A DNA stretch of 23,659 nucleotides. Origin: Terrimicrobiaceae bacterium (lineage in GTDB: Bacteria > Verrucomicrobiota > Verrucomicrobiia > Chthoniobacterales > Terrimicrobiaceae). The stretch spans positions 1 through 23,659 of the forward strand of contig JBIIPZ010000041.1 of assembly GCA_044342325.1 (NCBI GenBank). The letters run 5' to 3'. Positions 4,851 to 16,430 of this stretch are shown here, one piece after another; within the stretch, counting starts at the first letter, position 1, and every line of letters starts with the position of its first letter. The position numbers and the translations under genes were made by a program. A model generated the notes under the pieces. The model ran no database searches and was not told the origin of the DNA. It saw only the letters and a list, made by a program, of their open reading frames with translations.

Positions 4851-5144
4851 AATAACGCTATTTGTTCTCATTGCAGTCATTCTCTTTCGCTCGCGAATTT
4901 TCACCTGCGCTGCCTTTGGATAACTTGGCGCAGAATAGCAGCGTTATCTGCTGACGAGCCTTTGAGCAAAGATGGCCGAGTATGAACCGAAGAGATCGGT
5001 TACAAACTGACCGAGGACATGGGTTCCACATAAACCAAAAAAAACAAAAACTGGATTGTCCGCTTTTTTCTTGTTTTGACTGATAGGCAAGAATTTTCTG
5101 TGACCAATGAACGATCGGTAGAAAAATATTCGCTTTAAGTCCAT

Positions 5145-5540
5145 ATGGCCATTTCTAAAGCTGAGGCTCAAGTCATCGAGTGGATCGAGTGTCGCGACTA
5201 CGCGGCACTGTTTACAAGAATGTGCTGCGCTCATTTCGCACTTGTCTCGCATAAAGCTGGATTAGGTGACATATATTGCCTTCAAAGCTTACATCATCCG
5301 CGATTTCTTGGCCACGTGTTCGTAATTAATTCTCTAAAAAGACTTTTTGATGTTATCGGATACCGCGCTATTTCAGAGATGCTAACAACTCTGAAATGGT
5401 GCGTTGCGCCACATCTGCCGTGCTATGAGGCAAGAGTCAGAGAAGAAATTGATTCTATTGGTCTATCTGCATATACAACATCCAAAATTTTTTACACCGC
5501 CGAGACCCTTTTGAAATCAATACTTGAACAAAATGAATAG
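5145..5540 (+). CDS. Hypothetical protein (cassette ORF 1)
   Basis: 131 aa AT-rich ORF; stop TAG is immediately followed by attC-like R'' GCCGAAC. Confidence 0.6.
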   Translation: MAISKAEAQVIEWIECRDYAALFTRMCCAHFALVSHKAGLGDIYCLQSLHHPRFLGHVFVINSLKRLFDVIGYRAISEMLTTLKWCVAPHLPCYEARVREEIDSIGLSAYTTSKIFYTAETLLKSILEQNE

Positions 5541-5655
5541 GCCGAACTGGCCGGCGCAGCTCATCCCCATGCCTTCGGCACTTTTGTTATGCTTCCTGCT
5601 TGCGCAGGAGATCATGCCAAAAGCAAGTGGGGATACCTGACGGGGGACTTTAGCC
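5541..5655 (+). repeat. attC-like site 1 (full length, R' core mutated)
   Basis: GCCGAAC-9nt-CAGCTCATCCCCA ... TGGGGATACCTGA-8nt-TTTAGCC. Inner arms CTTTTGTTATG/CATGCCAAAAG and TCCTGC/GCAGGA form a long imperfect hairpin with an extra C in the left L box. Confidence 0.75.
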
Positions 5656-5720
5656 AAGAAATATTCGCGATTTGTAGCATGATTCCTTATACTCCACCCG
5701 CAACCTGATCAAATAAAGCT

Positions 5721-6026
5721 ATGCAAGACGACACACCACCACCATCAGCGCAAGTGACAGCGTCAATTCCAAAGGGTTCGAGTCGCTGGAATCCCATTCT
5801 GCCGTTCGTAATCTCGGTTATCGGCAGCCTCACCTTCATATTCGCATCAGGCACGACATTCTCCAGCGCGCTGACAACTTTTGCGCTCTGCTTTGCCGTC
5901 GCATACATCACCCAGATCATTTTCGGACGCTTTTTTCTCGCGCTGCCATTTTTCGATACCGTGTCCACAACAGCCGACCAGTCCAAGCTCAGCGGGTCCG
6001 CGCCAGGCAATCCAAAAAAGCAGTAG
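5721..6026 (+). CDS. Hypothetical small membrane protein (cassette ORF 2)
   Basis: 101 aa with two hydrophobic segments; the C-terminal tail reads through the next attC-like site. Confidence 0.55.
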   Translation: MQDDTPPPSAQVTASIPKGSSRWNPILPFVISVIGSLTFIFASGTTFSSALTTFALCFAVAYITQIIFGRFFLALPFFDTVSTTADQSKLSGSAPGNPKKQ

Positions 6027-6040
6027 CTTCGACGTTGGGC
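5973..6040 (+). repeat. attC-like site 2 (degenerate)
   Basis: GCCGACC (5973-5979) then GTCCAAGCT ... AGCTTCGAC followed by a perfect GTTRRRY core GTTGGGC (6034-6040), 24 nt before the next ATG. Confidence 0.55.
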
Positions 6041-6064
6041 AGAAAAAACAAACCACAGTTTACG

Positions 6065-6520
6065 ATGAAAGATTGCATTTTTTGCCAGATTGTTCGCGGA
6101 GAAGTTCCCTCCCATAAATTTTGGGAAGACCAGGATCATATTGCATTTCTTTCCATTTTTCCCAATACGCTTGGATTCAGCGTAGTTATTCCACGACACC
6201 ACTATCCCAGCTATGCATTCGCGCTTCCCGACGATGAGCTTTCAAAACTCGTCATTGCCGCGAAGCAAGTCGCTCAATTACTTGATCAGAAGCTTGACGG
6301 CGTTGCTCGGACTGGGTTGATTTTTGAGGGCTACGGCGTTGACCATGTTCATGCCAAGCTGTTTCCAATGCACGGCACTGGAAGCGACAGTTCATTTCAC
6401 CGGATTCACTCTAGTATCGATAAGTTTTTTACAAAATACGAAGGATATATTTCATCACATGACTGGAAGCGTGCGGATAATGCTGAATTGGCGGCATTGG
6501 CAGCACACCTGCGCAGTTGA
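6065..6520 (+). CDS. HIT family hydrolase (cassette ORF 3)
   Basis: MKDCIFCQIV, AFLSIFP, VVIPRHH, and triad variant VDHVHAKLFP. ATG 6065 preferred since TTG 6035 lies within the attC core. Confidence 0.9.
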   Translation: MKDCIFCQIVRGEVPSHKFWEDQDHIAFLSIFPNTLGFSVVIPRHHYPSYAFALPDDELSKLVIAAKQVAQLLDQKLDGVARTGLIFEGYGVDHVHAKLFPMHGTGSDSSFHRIHSSIDKFFTKYEGYISSHDWKRADNAELAALAAHLRS

Positions 6521-6524
6521 AGAT

Positions 6525-6587
6525 CTGGGCGCGATCCCGGGATCTGCCGCGCCAGCGGTCCGGTGCCGATGATCTTGGACGTTCGGC
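6525..6587 (+). repeat. attC-like site 3 (3' half only)
   Basis: Inner hairpin CTGGGCGCG/CGCGCCAG around palindrome ATCCCGGGAT, then ATGA-8nt-GTTCGGC (6581-6587) 6 nt before the next ATG. No R''/L'' left after the HIT stop. Confidence 0.6.
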
Positions 6588-6593
6588 AGTAAT

Positions 6594-7046
6594 ATGAACA
6601 TGCTTAGAATACTCCTCGCAACTTGTCTGTTGATATTTGCATCAGGATGTGCATCTTTGCCGCGAAACCAGCCCATGACAAATCCTGTAAATTACTTTGA
6701 GATCCCAGTCCGCGATATGGATAGGGCGATCAGCTTCTACTCGAAGACCTTTGATATGACATTCGAGAGAAAAGAGATCGATGGCAACGAGATGGCGCTA
6801 TTCCCATATCAACCGAGTGGCGAGGGTGCCACTGGCGCACTTGCGAAAGGAGAAAGTTATGAGCCATCCTTGAAAGGCACTCGGGTCTATTTCTCAACGC
6901 AAGATATTGATGCCACGCTCCGAAATGCGATTTCATCGGGCGGGAGGTTGATCTACCCCAAGACAGACGCCGGTGATTACGGATTTGTGGCTGAATTTGA
7001 GGACTCAGAAGGAAACTGCATAGCACTTCACATGAAAAAACCATAA
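6594..7046 (+). CDS. VOC/glyoxalase-bleomycin resistance family protein (cassette ORF 4)
   Basis: NPVNYFEIPV.D..RA..FY, VYF...DID, A.FEDSEGN.IALH. Possible lipoprotein signal (FASGC); alternative start 6675. Confidence 0.9.
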   Translation: MNMLRILLATCLLIFASGCASLPRNQPMTNPVNYFEIPVRDMDRAISFYSKTFDMTFERKEIDGNEMALFPYQPSGEGATGALAKGESYEPSLKGTRVYFSTQDIDATLRNAISSGGRLIYPKTDAGDYGFVAEFEDSEGNCIALHMKKP

Positions 7047-7047
7047 G

Positions 7048-7074
7048 GCCGACCGGGGAAATGAAGCTAATCCC
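7048..7074 (+). repeat. attC-like site 4 (5' half only)
   Basis: Right after the stop: GCCGACC-9nt-AAGCTAATCCC, with the same spacing and sequence as the left arms of sites 1 and 5. GCCGACC is 6/7 complementary to this cassette's upstream core GTTCGGC. Confidence 0.55.
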
Positions 7075-7083
7075 TTCGAAATC

Positions 7084-7608
7084 ATGCCAATCATAGAATG
7101 CACAGATGAACTGATGCGGGATGCCGAGTCTCTTGTGAAGAGTGTTTTTCCATCGATGACACCACTCGAGCGACTGAGCTTCATCGCCATCAGGCGACCG
7201 GAGAGTCTTGCTGGTCGTTTACTCATGTGGCTCGCTGGGGTAAAGTCCAAGGTTGCATTTGCAGTGTATATCGACGAAACAAATGCAGTGCTTGGCACAA
7301 CTGGGCTGTATCAATACAAGAGGGATGCACAGGAGGCCATGTGGGTTTCTTGGTTCTGCGTCGATCCCAAAGCGAGGGGGAAAGGTATTGGGCAAAAGCT
7401 AATTGAGCATACAATATGCTTGGCAGCTCAAGCCGGTTTCCAACGGCTCCGCCTCTACACCTCAACAGATCCGAATGAAGAAGCCGCGCAGCGACTTTAT
7501 GAAAAAAATGGCTTCAAGGAAATCAGGCGGGAAAAAGGGCTTTTCGGAACCAAGATTTTCCGAGAGAGAGAAATCAAAGAACAAAATAGTCCAGCTAATC
7601 CCCTATAG
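7084..7608 (+). CDS. GNAT family N-acetyltransferase (cassette ORF 5)
   Basis: Motif A WFCVDPKARGKGIG and motif B AAQRLYEKNGF; last codons run into attC-like site 5. Confidence 0.9.
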   Translation: MPIIECTDELMRDAESLVKSVFPSMTPLERLSFIAIRRPESLAGRLLMWLAGVKSKVAFAVYIDETNAVLGTTGLYQYKRDAQEAMWVSWFCVDPKARGKGIGQKLIEHTICLAAQAGFQRLRLYTSTDPNEEAAQRLYEKNGFKEIRREKGLFGTKIFREREIKEQNSPANPL

Positions 7609-7647
7609 CCATCGCCTTTCAGGGATTGCTGACCACCAAAATTCCGC
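7576..7647 (+). repeat. attC-like site 5 (L boxes intact, R boxes decayed)
   Basis: AAAGAAC-9nt-CAGCTAATCCC ... GGGATTGCTGA-8nt-ATTCCGC. Left L arm has one extra base versus the right arm; next ATG 4 nt later. Confidence 0.65.
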
Positions 7648-7651
7648 ATAG

Positions 7652-8194
7652 ATGAACCTGCTGATCAAAACTGCAATCCGGACGCTTTTTACTTTCACAA
7701 GTCGCGAAAAAGCGCTGGAAAAAAGCGAATTTGTCTTGCGGAGATATGCAGAACTTGCCGACGGATTATCCAAAGAAGCTGGGCAGCGTTGCATCGAAGT
7801 CCCGCCAATGAGGGGTGTCGATGAAGATATGCGAAAATGGTCGTTTTTTATGATCTTGGAGCACAATGCCATTGTGAACAGAAGTATCACAGCCACAGTC
7901 GTTCAGCTTGCAAGAGGAGAGAAATTGAGCGGACCGGCCACGATCAATCCCAAGACGGATGTCATGCCCTCTTCATCGGCGGATGCATCACAATTCAAGG
8001 ATTTTGCTGATTCTGTGACCAGCCACATTGAAGCCGTGAAGAGTTTAAAGCGGCTACGAGGCACGAGGACTTCCCCGCATCCTGTCTTTGGAGATTTTGA
8101 CGCTCACAAATGGAACTGCATGTTTGCCTTCCATTTGGGACTGCACCTGCCACAGGCCGAGTATGTTGTGGGTAAGGCTATGGCCAGTCGGTAA
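7652..8194 (+). CDS. DinB-like (DinB_2/DUF1569) four-helix family protein (cassette ORF 6)
   Basis: WS...ILEH, PHPVFG, and C-terminal H...H..Q metal-binding pattern. Confidence 0.8.
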   Translation: MNLLIKTAIRTLFTFTSREKALEKSEFVLRRYAELADGLSKEAGQRCIEVPPMRGVDEDMRKWSFFMILEHNAIVNRSITATVVQLARGEKLSGPATINPKTDVMPSSSADASQFKDFADSVTSHIEAVKSLKRLRGTRTSPHPVFGDFDAHKWNCMFAFHLGLHLPQAEYVVGKAMASR

Positions 8195-8356
8195 TCCGGA
8201 CTTGGTCAGTTCCAGGGTGCACGCCTCTGGGCGTTCCGTTACGCGCCATCGCCGAGCGGCTTGAACAAAACGCGAATCGGACGACTGTAGCCAAGTTGCC
8301 TTCCGAGCGTGCCGCAGAGCGACAAAACCGCGCAAATCAGAAGACCCAGCCAGAGG

Positions 8357-10678: not shown

Positions 10679-10752
10679 TGGCTGCCTCGCATGGATTCGA
10701 ACCATGACAAACAGATCCAGAATCTGCAGTGCTACCGTTACACCACGAGGCA
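10679..10752 (-). tRNA. tRNA-Gln (anticodon CTG), CCA encoded
   Basis: Minus strand TGCCTCG TG GTGTAACGGTAGCAC T GCAGA TTCTGGA TCTGT TTGT CATGG TTCGAAT CCATG CGAGGCA G CCA folds into a cloverleaf with U1-A72. Confidence 0.97.
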
Positions 10753-15477: not shown

Positions 15478-15503
15478 GGATGTTTATTTTGTCTCATATG
15501 AGA
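15461..15503 (+). promoter_or_regulatory. Putative sigma70 promoter plus operator palindrome of the TA operon
   Basis: TTGACA (15461-15466), 18-nt spacer, TATTTT (15485-15490), then perfect palindrome TCTCATATGAGA (15492-15503) covering ATG 15498. Confidence 0.55.
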
Positions 15504-15944
15504 AGAGCGCTTTACGCACCGAGAGTTATTGAGCAATTCCTGCCAAAGAATGATTATGTGATGAAAGAAGAAATGCCATCTAGCCCAATCGTAGAGCAGC
15601 TGAGGCATGGTTTTCTTTATGATGAATTCGAGGTGCTCCGACGTTGGCTTGATGTGAGCGAGGAGCAATTAGCAAATTGGCTCGATATTTCAAGAGCAAC
15701 ACTTCATCGTCGCAAAAAGACAGGTCATTTTGACAAGAATGAAAGTGATCGTATCGCTCGGCTTGCGAGGGTTTTTGGAAAAGCTTTTGAACTTTTCGGA
15801 TCCGAAGAAGCCGCCCGCGAGTGGCTGAAGTCTCCCGCGCACGCGATGAGCGGCGAGACGCCCATCGCTTTTTGCGACACGGAGGTCGGAGCCAGAATGG
15901 TGGAGGACCTCATTGGCCAGATCGACCACGGAGTCTTCGCCTGA
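15498..15944 (+). CDS. Xre/MbcA/ParS-family antitoxin (DUF2384)
   Basis: HTH LA.WLDISRATLHRRK, ESDRIARLARV, LFGSEEAAREWL..P...L/M.GETP, and C-terminal I.HGVFA. Start could be 15480, 15498 or 15561. Confidence 0.92.
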   Translation: MRRALYAPRVIEQFLPKNDYVMKEEMPSSPIVEQLRHGFLYDEFEVLRRWLDVSEEQLANWLDISRATLHRRKKTGHFDKNESDRIARLARVFGKAFELFGSEEAAREWLKSPAHAMSGETPIAFCDTEVGARMVEDLIGQIDHGVFA

Positions 15945-15953
15945 GGGTTTCTT

Positions 15954-16430
15954 ATGCTTCGAGCCTATCGCATTGTGAACCACAAATGGCGCACCTCCGC
16001 TTTCGATGGCGAAGGTGCGCGTTTGCATGGAGGGCGCTGGAATCATCCAGGCCATCCTTGCGTCTATCTTGCCAGCTCCCGTGCACTTGCCGCCTTGGAA
16101 TTGCTCGTCCATCTCACCCCAAAAACAAAGTGTGTGCGTTTTAGTTTTCTGGAATTGAATTTGGGTTCTTTATCAATTGAAAAAATTGCAACACTGCCAC
16201 GCGGTTGGGATGAGACTCTGCCATCCGGCGCAACCCGCGAGGCCGGGACTGAATGGCTTCGCTCCAAGCGTTCCGCTATTTTGCAGGTGCCATCGGTTTT
16301 GATACAGGAGGAGCCTAACTACCTTCTGAATCCCAGCCATCCGGAGTGTGAAAATGTATTCCCCATCGCAGCGCGCGACTTCTTTTTCGACCCCCGATTG
16401 AAGCAACACCTTGGGAGCGCCTATCTCTGA
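15954..16430 (+). CDS. RES-domain toxin (NAD+ phosphorylase/ART-like; ParT/MbcT family)
   Basis: YRI, AFDGEGA...GGRWN, VYLA....LA.LE, LQVPS, E.NYLLNP.H, FDPRL; directly downstream of the Xre antitoxin. Confidence 0.93.
   Translation: MLRAYRIVNHKWRTSAFDGEGARLHGGRWNHPGHPCVYLASSRALAALELLVHLTPKTKCVRFSFLELNLGSLSIEKIATLPRGWDETLPSGATREAGTEWLRSKRSAILQVPSVLIQEEPNYLLNPSHPECENVFPIAARDFFFDPRLKQHLGSAYL

Follow-up and report, generated by a model that had tools for sequence, protein, structure and literature searches.

Complete integrons are less numerous than cassette arrays without a neighbouring integrase gene (CALINs). Whether the latter are remnants or still working components of the integron system is not settled, in part because the tools in use miss attI sites outside the clinical classes. 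Both CALINs and their use in trans are already known ideas. According to the accessible part of Cury et al. (2016; PMC4889954), intI loss and IS-driven rearrangement are among four listed origins of CALINs, and attI is undescribed for most integrons and could not be searched for. In Xanthomonas, the available part of a recent report (bioRxiv 2025.06.18.660453) describes progressive loss of intI and CALINs at conserved chromosomal loci across species, and names mobilization in trans as possible. An integrase may also place cassettes away from its own gene, as in the SALIN/attG insertions of Loot et al. (accessible part of bioRxiv 2022.09.11.507474), and in the Delta-attI-type cassettes of class 1 and 2 integrons an extra attI away from the primary site can recombine (available part of PMC12901181).

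The locus considered here, from a lake bacterium of the Terrimicrobiaceae, is an eroded integron cassette array with its own attI site and no intI beside it. It lies on a stretch of 23,659 nucleotides, analysed at its full length and called the window. Like the CALINs in the part of PMC4889954 available to us, it is a cassette array with no neighbouring intI, with an intI elsewhere in the genome and with cargo of unassigned function; unlike them, it has its own attI and a single strong attC left. The sequence-only reading of this DNA had proposed a hidden, CALIN-like array without integrase. The cassette origin and the absence of a neighbouring intI stand, whereas the bare attC cluster does not: with an attI of its own, the array is an integron platform minus intI. 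A complete integron, in which intI adjoins attI, is present on contig C30 of the same genome; in the window an IS end occupies the place of intI. With that sedentary chromosomal integron (G000:C30), whose cassettes run opposite to intI, the window shares the attI, the attC family, the R''-5-L''...L'-6-R' anatomy and two extrahelical bases; it differs in lacking intI and in its eroded attC sites, and the genome has four platforms with a full attI, of which it is one. Taken together, the sequences make it likely that the array lost its intI through an insertion sequence and was filled in trans by the C30 IntI.

The attI site occupies positions 5052-5119 of the forward strand, with the crossover (G|AT) at 5113/5114 and neither intI nor an intI stub upstream. 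Its 62 nt up to the crossover (5052-5113) gave 48.2 bits (E 2.1e-14), the sole match in the window to a model of 46 sites from which six of 52 had been omitted (the window site itself, two doubtful or altered, two truncated and one duplicate). Its identity is 76% to the intI-adjacent attI of C30 and 81% to that of C68, and in a tree of 95 nt, read for topology alone, the site clusters with those of loci A, B and C. The homology ends at the crossover, where the cassette follows, and this boundary is visible among 52 listed sites. The stretch 5082-5119, with which the sequence-only reading had begun the array, is non-coding and belongs to this attI, which had been missed.

Such a site bears on the suggestion that the cassettes were inserted at a secondary attG site, or split from a larger array, without any platform. 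A 62-nt attI homologue exactly heads the first cassette, which refutes that origin for the head of the array, and attG sequences, in the accessible part of bioRxiv 2022.09.11.507474, are unlike attI, of which the window site is a clear homologue. The suggestion would agree with the absence of an intI stub nearby, with contig G034:C22, where the PKS flank of the window continues into a broken cassette end, an attC and then directly the VOC gene, with attI absent, and with one lake contig that joins 4913 to 6577; we consider it improbable. It follows from the arrangement on G034:C22 and from the 4913-6577 joint that the VOC-GNAT-DinB tail may have come separately from attI and the first three genes.

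No match to intI was obtained with TIGR02249 or tblastn anywhere on the 23.7-kb window contig, the 3 kb around attI included. In front of attI, at 4980-5035 on the forward strand, lies the lone left end of an IS481-type insertion sequence, which points to attI, where intI would start. Over 56 nt it shares 91% identity with the end of an IS on G000:C65, whose 406-aa transposase has NF033577 (IS481) as its best match (212 bits, E 1e-62, cut-off 224) and also matches PF13011. Since there is no intI remnant beside the IS end, and lone ends of this type are common in the genus, IS-driven loss of intI at this spot is a guess.

At positions -15, -5, -4 and +1 the window attI differs from every one of the 48 sites with which it was compared, and the three changes to the left of the crossover weigh against the explanation preferred here. 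The change from GTT to GAT was dropped as proof of a dead site, because IntI1 recombines attI1-GAT at or above the wild-type level (PMC2811028, Table 4), and the window attI may still be able to take up a cassette. The locus with its attI was found in one genome only among 41, and exact one-cassette differences, the indirect evidence that such attI sites recombine, come from sister sites. In all four lake runs, contigs across 5113 have the identical first gene, even at about 3% divergence, with no joint listed; a metagenome scan with the PKS flank yielded one unrelated chance match (L109) and no other alleles of the window locus. The constancy of the first cassette favours the view that the array is a dead fossil, built while intI was adjacent and without recombination here since, as does the fact that no intact attC is left in the window.

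The five junctions between the genes (J1 to J5) were compared with a covariance model of attC sites from outside the window. It comprised 23 of 30 candidates found, four of them with corrected ends; G015:C201, a near-copy of J1, was omitted, as were seven further candidates whose left ends were unclear or duplicate. Changes on both sides occur in 21 of 41 pairs of the alignment, a figure reached by 1 of 500 shuffles and inflated by the kinship of the sequences. J1 (5541-5655, reverse strand) is a full-length attC of family A with a bottom-strand hairpin (81.7 bits, E 1.9e-21), 93% identical to the G015:C201 site, which retains GTT where the J1 core reads TTT. J5 (7576-7647, reverse strand) is short and degenerate (15.7 bits, E 0.023; next chance match 13.8 bits), with an L box, an extrahelical G and an ATT core; it folds with a bulged G and is conserved in G041, G043, G039, G037 and G001. 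J2, J3 and J4, all on the forward strand, gave no match to the model at E<=10. J3 (6532-6587) is the right half of a family B attC, with GTTCGGC intact and the left half deleted, and is 90% identical to the right half of the full G001:C65 site; full copies of family B occur in G001, G021, G040, G048, G029, G004 and G011. J4 (7048-7074) is the left half of a family A attC that collapsed through deletion: its counterparts in G001 and G037 have left and right stubs still joined, and one lake contig runs on into a family A left arm (loose end at 7052). The weakest junction is J2 (6027-6040), a remnant of 7 nt and an intact R' box (GTTGGGC) read off the sequence, for which no relative was located.

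The motifs on which the sequence-only reading had relied are present, the left one with its 9-nt gap at 5541, 7048 and 7576 and the right one before 5649, 6581 and 7641, and the ends of the VOC cassette are complementary as described (GTTCGGC at 6581, GCCGACC at 7048). Their interpretation has to be revised. The 9 nt taken for a spacer comprise the usual 5-nt spacer and half of L''; the 8 nt comprise the end of L' and the usual 6-nt spacer. One consensus and one attC family for all junctions could not be upheld, since J3 represents a second family and J2 keeps 7 nt and its R' box. Nor is the right box GTT throughout, the core sites at 5649 and 7641 reading TTT and ATT; J1 has AAC...TTT and J5 AAC...ATT in place of the AAC/GTT core pair, while J2 and J3 have GTT and no left arm. 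The proposed R''-L''...L'-R' architecture, with 5- and 6-nt spacers, bottom-strand hairpin and extrahelical bases, is in register in the family, in J1 and in J5, and is absent from J2-J4. Of five proposed attC junctions the covariance model thus returned one whole site, one weak short site and three half-sites without a match, and under the strict CALIN rule (at least two attC) the status of the array is borderline. With IntI1, recombination drops to 2e-4 for attC-TTT and to 3e-3 for attC-ATT (PMC2811028, Table 4). Deletions and the core first-base changes (TTT at 5649, ATT at 7641) would lock the six genes as a fixed, operon-like block.

Behind the last stop codon, TCCGGAC at 8195-8201 on the forward strand (TCCGAAC in G043:C61) is tentatively an R'' remnant, and homology to G001, G014, G037, G039 and G043 stops a few bases past it. 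We rejected 8195-8292 as a sixth attC, the R''-like box excepted: in G041:C2, what follows about 8205 is present on the symporter side although DinB is missing. A scan of the window with Rfam gave a tRNA as the sole significant match and no attC-type match; the array junctions are absent from the list of an exact-seed repeat search, and promoter and terminator sites were no more numerous than in shuffles.

The six genes are co-oriented on the forward strand, as had been reported. ORF1 (5145-5540, 131 aa) has no Pfam or NCBIfam match; a protein search returned its own cluster alone and no relative, and Atlas matches of 0.93-0.94, YunG-like, are a weak lead only. Between the two ends of its cassette, GATCGGT and GCCGAAC, 5 of 7 positions are complementary. 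ORF2 (5721-6026, 101 aa with a hydrophobic middle stretch) has two unnamed homologues, 79% and 55% identical; GCCGACC inside it was rejected as the R'' of J2 because the 79% homologue has the same C-terminal length. At E<=1e-15, none of the 40 other genomes of the genus has a counterpart of the HIT-family hydrolase gene (6065-6520; PF01230, 34.4 bits). This gene is followed by the VOC/glyoxalase gene (6594-7046; PF00903), the GNAT acetyltransferase gene (7084-7608; PF00583 and PF13508 above cut-off), whose frame enters J5, and, last in the array, the DinB-like gene (7652-8194; PF12867, DinB_2, 20.4 bits, under cut-off). The cargo is ordinary, and the array is a worn member of the set found in the genus.

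That the VOC gene is a mobile cassette can be taken as proven from comparison with relatives, in which the match begins at the core site, behind other attC sites or an attI-like site. In G041:C52 it is 97% identical and likewise upstream of DinB and a symporter gene, with a different attC preceding it from the crossover on; VOC-GNAT-DinB also moves as a fused block. The expectation that these families are cassette cargo and recur as cassettes elsewhere is therefore borne out for VOC, whereas the HIT subfamily seldom occurs in cassettes elsewhere (with a strict detector, 1 of 78 loci, against a shuffled rate of 0.4%, plus L151 by eye among 16 inspected). For ORF2, HIT, GNAT and DinB no single movement with exact borders was seen in the other arrays compared, and ORF1 and VOC are the only well-supported cassettes of the array. 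The exact VOC borders, with the E values of J1 (2e-21) and attI (2e-14), also refute chance motifs among unrelated accessory genes as an account of J1, J3, J4 and attI, with J2 left as a putative junction. Such an account could call on the failure of J2, J3 and J4 to match the covariance model, on the many genome places that loose versions of the half-motifs match at 2 mismatches and on HIT and DinB homologues that mostly lack attC; we regard it as extremely improbable.

A genome search for intI, suggested with the sequence-only reading, found one intact copy, on C30, and the genome has four full attI sites. The C30 IntI (466 aa, uninterrupted frame) gives 417.8 bits on TIGR02249 (cut-off 265), and what we take to be the R, K, HxxR, H and Y integrase motifs are visible in its sequence. 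The C30 array shares attC family A with the window, and cassette 2 of this intact integron is found again at locus A. The window contig (C11) and C30 are joined by binning alone (0.28% contamination), and all genomes compared are fragmented assemblies.

Across the genus, attI sites of the window type occur in 28 of 41 genomes (69 matches, 18 of them counted without individual inspection), and a full intI in only 11. The 54 attI-like sites examined form a graded series: a full intI at 7, an internally deleted one at 1, a fragment of 23-265 aa at 11 and no intI within 1.5-3 kb at 29, with too little flank at 6. At 30 integrase-less sites no conserved small helper ORF stands in the intI place; the ORFs present in that position run antisense to the upstream gene, except for an IntI-like stub in G038:C30. 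Seven orthologous loci without intact intI lie behind DUF6572, pfkB, ureD, pgk, RND and pgi genes, with one (locus E) an attI inside an array; their upstream 400 nt are 65-98% alike, and their 24 sites have 21 different first cassettes. At two loci one species has an extra cassette precisely at the crossover: G039:C15 corresponds to the G037:C58 array from base 1 (99.5% over 1907 nt) preceded by an extra cassette of 974 nt, and G039:C81 to the G037:C26/G042:C185 array preceded by one of 1180 nt. Cassettes that come first at one locus also reappear deeper within other arrays. Several attI sites with different first genes in related species thus make it likely that one integrase elsewhere in the genome serves all.

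These loci weigh on the dead-fossil view, under which differing first cassettes at sister loci predate independent late intI losses or came by homologous recombination. The existence of intI stubs of every length agrees with it, as do four near-complete genomes, G035, G039 and G043 (98% complete) and G033 (96%), with 2-5 attI matches and no full intI, which a resident integrase therefore cannot serve now unless it is unassembled. Against it stands locus A, where seven genomes, 90-94% alike up to attI, have six first cassettes and one exact one-cassette addition; the DUF6572 gene lies only about 143 nt from the crossover, which leaves no space for separate late intI losses. This objection comes from locus A, and the window on its own may be a fossil; overall, we see the fossil as a possible but less probable explanation. 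It is unlikely that the element is conserved only as a Pc-like promoter for accessory genes, with recombination incidental. Its frequent position directly behind housekeeping genes, in the same direction, and conservation reaching 60 nt left of the crossover would suit that role, but conservation ends sharply at GTT, the sequence beyond differs at nearly every site, and added cassettes are joined to the base. No consensus promoter (Pc) or sigma-70-like site was found near the window attI, in a scan that may not suit this phylum.

We lean, by a modest degree, towards a distributed integron, in which one IntI, resident or transient, would serve up to eight chromosomal attI sites, and capture and exchange from a shared pool would outlast the loss of intI; the window attI (G|AT) would still be competent and its six genes locked. 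Cassettes would have entered by ordinary IntI recombination between a bottom-strand attC hairpin and double-stranded attI at G|TT, the newest lying nearest attI. An insertion sequence probably removed intI and left the array with its attI, and the one intact integrase of the genome probably filled it in trans. It appears that integron platforms of the genus reached new loci by copying or relocation and lost intI step by step while attI remained in use, and the many attI sites directly behind housekeeping genes could draw transcription from them. The genus resembles Xanthomonas in its progressive intI loss, but there, in the accessible part of bioRxiv 2025.06.18.660453, ilvD is the single intI locus and the other loci are described without an attI; in the present genus many loci have intI or a stub of it, and every array is headed by attI. 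Locus E recalls the Delta-attI-type cassettes; in the available part of PMC12901181 these belong to mobile integrons and end in a truncated copy of attI, while in the genus complete attI sites stand at the start of distinct chromosomal arrays. No description of many attI-bearing platforms in one genome turned up in the literature searched, the supplements of which could list such sites.

The genus has dated captures at integrase-less sites, where the accessible part of PMC4889954 raises the possibility only, as excision from a CALIN. It offers recognizable attI sites, one cognate integrase, a series from intact intI to none and species pairs one cassette apart, which makes capture in trans directly testable. 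Our analysis suggests that some arrays filed as CALINs may be entry points for cassettes and not stores alone.

The window array is real and of mixed attC family, without any intact attC site. The window is an entire contig (C11) of a 2.93 Mb assembly (78 contigs, 86% complete); most sequencing runs in which it is present come from lake-water metagenomes. The array is flanked by a type III PKS gene on one side and a sodium:solute symporter gene on the other, and its DNA has a GC content of 42–51% vs 56.5% for the genome. The six genes comprise two of unknown function (ORF1, 5145–5540; ORF2, 5721–6026), HIT (6065–6520), VOC (6594–7046), GNAT (7084–7608) and a weak DinB match (7652–8194). Elsewhere in the window we observed a tRNA gene upstream of the symporter gene (10682–10752, minus strand), an Xre/RES toxin–antitoxin pair with no link to the array (15480–16430) and a gene seemingly split in two frames (2110–2475 and 2409–2696, together 2110–2696), possibly a frameshifted SOUL-type heme-binding protein.

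The sequence-only reading saw parts of one attC consensus in all five junctions (J1–J5). Related loci yielded 30 attC candidates, of which the 23 with clear ends were aligned; none came from the window, and a 93% near-copy of J1 was excluded. The alignment has the canonical anatomy (R'' of 7 nt, spacer of 5 nt, L'' of 8 nt, L' of 7 nt, spacer of 6 nt, R'), with two unpaired bases on the bottom strand. Paired cells amount to 83% vs 30–40% with partners slid, and two-sided changes occur in 21 of 41 pairs, kinship of the sequences inflating the shuffle test. With the local covariance model built without window sites, similarity to attC is strong at J1 (5541–5655; 81.7 bits) and weak at J5 (7576–7647; 15.7 bits, E 0.023, the next chance match reaching 13.8 bits), but J2, J3 and J4 were absent from the 11 matches at E ≤ 10. 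J3 is the right half of a different family (B, that of J1 being A), with full-length copies in G001:C65 (genome:contig, here and below) and six more genomes of the genus; J4 is a left half, of family A, and both stubs are still joined in G001 and G037. J2 consists of 7 nt plus GTTGGGC. The core is TTT in J1, GTT in its near-copy (G015:C201) and ATT in J5. For IntI1 and a GTT partner, TTT in attC lowers recombination about 5000-fold and ATT about 300-fold (PMC2811028, Table 4); by analogy, these figures may carry over to the integrase of this genus. Further family A sites lie at G000:C71:94519–94641, after a long chromosomal-looking gene, and at C18:13509–13578 of the same genome, with no attI seen nearby.

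A genome search for intI, which the same reading had proposed, found one intact integron integrase, on contig C30 (466 aa, 417.8 bits on TIGR02249); its cassettes follow in the opposite direction and carry attC of the J1 family. The integrase of this genus (L013:1577–2974, G000:C30) has about 150 additional N-terminal residues ahead of the SAM_4 domain, for which no Pfam match was found; overall IntI identity is 82–86%. Copies of the stretch that separates intI from the first cassette lie in the window immediately 5' of ORF1 (76% identity), on C68 without intI, on C46 with a 72-codon intI stub and, as a partial copy, on C28. An attI model of 46 sites, the window's left out, gave a single window match, at 5052–5113 (E 2.1e-14). 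Immediately ahead of this match, 4980–5035 shares 91% identity with an IS481-type left end from an element on C65, and no intI remnant was detectable upstream of the window attI. The observation of a hidden, CALIN-like array without integrase is partly confirmed and its interpretation partly supported: the array is headed by an attI, and an intact intI exists elsewhere in the genome. The 66 nt between the divergence point of G004 (4913) and the IS end (4914–4979) end in GGCCGA, resembling an interrupted R'' box; part of them matches the start of G031:C68, and they possibly represent what is left of a cassette that once lay upstream. In several arrays the cassette R'' box holds, in backward orientation, an element that encodes a tyrosine recombinase as well as an IS91-type transposase and ends in an attC-like hairpin: G000:C68 (L054:196–2560), the end of G000:C46 (L055), G007:C60, G034:C313 and G038:C30.

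Across the genus, attI gave 69 matches in 28 of 41 genomes (at least two in 15 genomes, maximum 8), and a full intI occurs in 11 of the 41; a search of 134 genomes from the order's remaining genera did not find this attI. Among 54 sites examined (52 from the first search and two more, with 18 further of the 69 matches outside this set), a full intI accompanies 7, an internally deleted one 1 and fragments of 23–265 aa 11; 29 have no intI within 1.5–3 kb (one doubtful; G038:C30 has a short stub), and the flank is too short at 6. In seven groups the upstream flank is shared; six follow a DUF6572, pfkB, ureD, pgk, RND or pgi gene, and the seventh is located within a cassette array. These loci hold 24 sites with 21 different first cassettes, and identity is 65–98% in the 400 nt upstream of attI vs about 50% downstream; first cassettes of one locus are found again deeper in other arrays. 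In two cases G039 carries the array of the sister species from its first base on, with a single additional cassette (974 and 1180 nt) in front of it that is attached at the crossover. IntI produces exactly such one-cassette junctions at the crossover, by gain or loss alike. Behind the DUF6572 gene, about 143 nt separate the upstream gene from the crossover in seven genomes, and therefore intI cannot have been adjacent. Four genomes that are 96–98% complete (G033, G035, G039, G043) have 2–5 attI matches each and no full intI, which counts against a simple resident-integrase picture.

Other features were observed at these sites. An entire attI is embedded in a long cassette array, some 210 nt past the preceding gene (L242:7048–7125 in G039:C81; also G037:C26 and G042:C185), and has itself gained or lost a cassette. 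An element of about 430 nt without a clear gene, 92–100% identical where compared and often at contig ends, comes first at five attI sites in four genomes (L089:2596–3025 in G038:C30, G035:C21, G041:C62, G041:C96, G013:C79); it may be a cassette that supplies a promoter or is non-coding, or else a repeat. In G015:C201, where attI is accompanied by no more than a decayed intI stub, the first cassette is a putative restriction-modification-like gene pair (L038:5142–7852) with an attC 93% identical to J1.

As to homologous ORFs as cassettes in other orders, VOC is a proven cassette: its matches begin at the core site in G041:C52 and G034:C22 and end at the R'' box in G034:C22, G034:C313 and G050:C136. 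The attC upstream of VOC is of family A, family B or a third type in relatives, and in G045:C87 a 69% homologue occupies the first position behind an attI-like site. The G041 VOC, 97% identical, likewise precedes DinB and the symporter gene, but stands behind a different attC. On G034:C22 the PKS gene is followed by VOC, both attI and the first three array genes being absent, and 4913 is connected with 6577 on one lake contig; because VOC is present three times in G034, the contigs of this genome could not be joined with confidence. Other observations speak against free mobility: VOC–GNAT–DinB occur together with eroded junctions at another locus in G001 and G037, as do GNAT–DinB in G039; DinB lacks attC in G013, G014 and G015; and an attC-like site follows HIT relatives in one of 78 loci, HIT not being found in the other 40 genomes of the genus. 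In G034:C205 (L194:820–1400) the place of GNAT between VOC and DinB is taken by a putative toxin–antitoxin-like gene pair together with an IS remnant, and a 393-nt deletion in GNAT is common to G041:C52 and a lake contig. Window 8209–8333 is a breakpoint region, other DNA, including an oxidoreductase-like gene, lying between DinB and the symporter gene in other strains and species.

We consider it probable that the array is a platform that lost its intI, was filled in trans and then became fixed. The platform would once have had intI at this locus, or would have been moved there, and the IS may have taken part in the removal of intI. Cassettes would have entered at G|TT through attC × attI recombination, with the integrase supplied in trans after intI loss, and later deletions and core changes would have fixed the six genes in place. 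ORF1 lies on contigs crossing 5113 in four of four lake runs (at most 29 differences per 996 nt); a joint at that position is not listed for any of these four runs. No turnover was seen at the window attI, as would be expected had it been inactive ever since intI loss, a rather doubtful alternative that overlaps with the main reading for this locus. At four positions the window attI departs from every one of the 48 sites compared, one of these changes being GTT>GAT; the same change in attI1 leaves recombination by IntI1 undiminished (PMC2811028, Table 4), and by this analogy the site with its GAT core may still be working.

Class 2 integrons are served by IntI1 in trans. They usually have a truncated intI2 (PMC8876359). 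Published work already covers CALINs, how they arise through intI loss or IS rearrangement, and their mobilisation in trans (PMC4889954, PMC9668308, bioRxiv 2025.06.18.660453). According to Cury et al., attI is unknown for most integrons and was hence not searched for (PMC4889954), and a Treponema study takes one attI per integron as an assumption (PMC3607928). Insertion at attG (bioRxiv 2022.09.11.507474), delta-attI cassettes (PMC12901181) and phage CALINs (PMC9892861) are, as described there, related to the window array, yet different. The full-text literature searched, subscription journals and supplements excepted, yielded no description of chromosomes with several integrase-less arrays that each start at an attI. 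The window array itself is ordinary and worn; what makes it interesting is its attI, together with the set of integrase-less platforms found across the genus.
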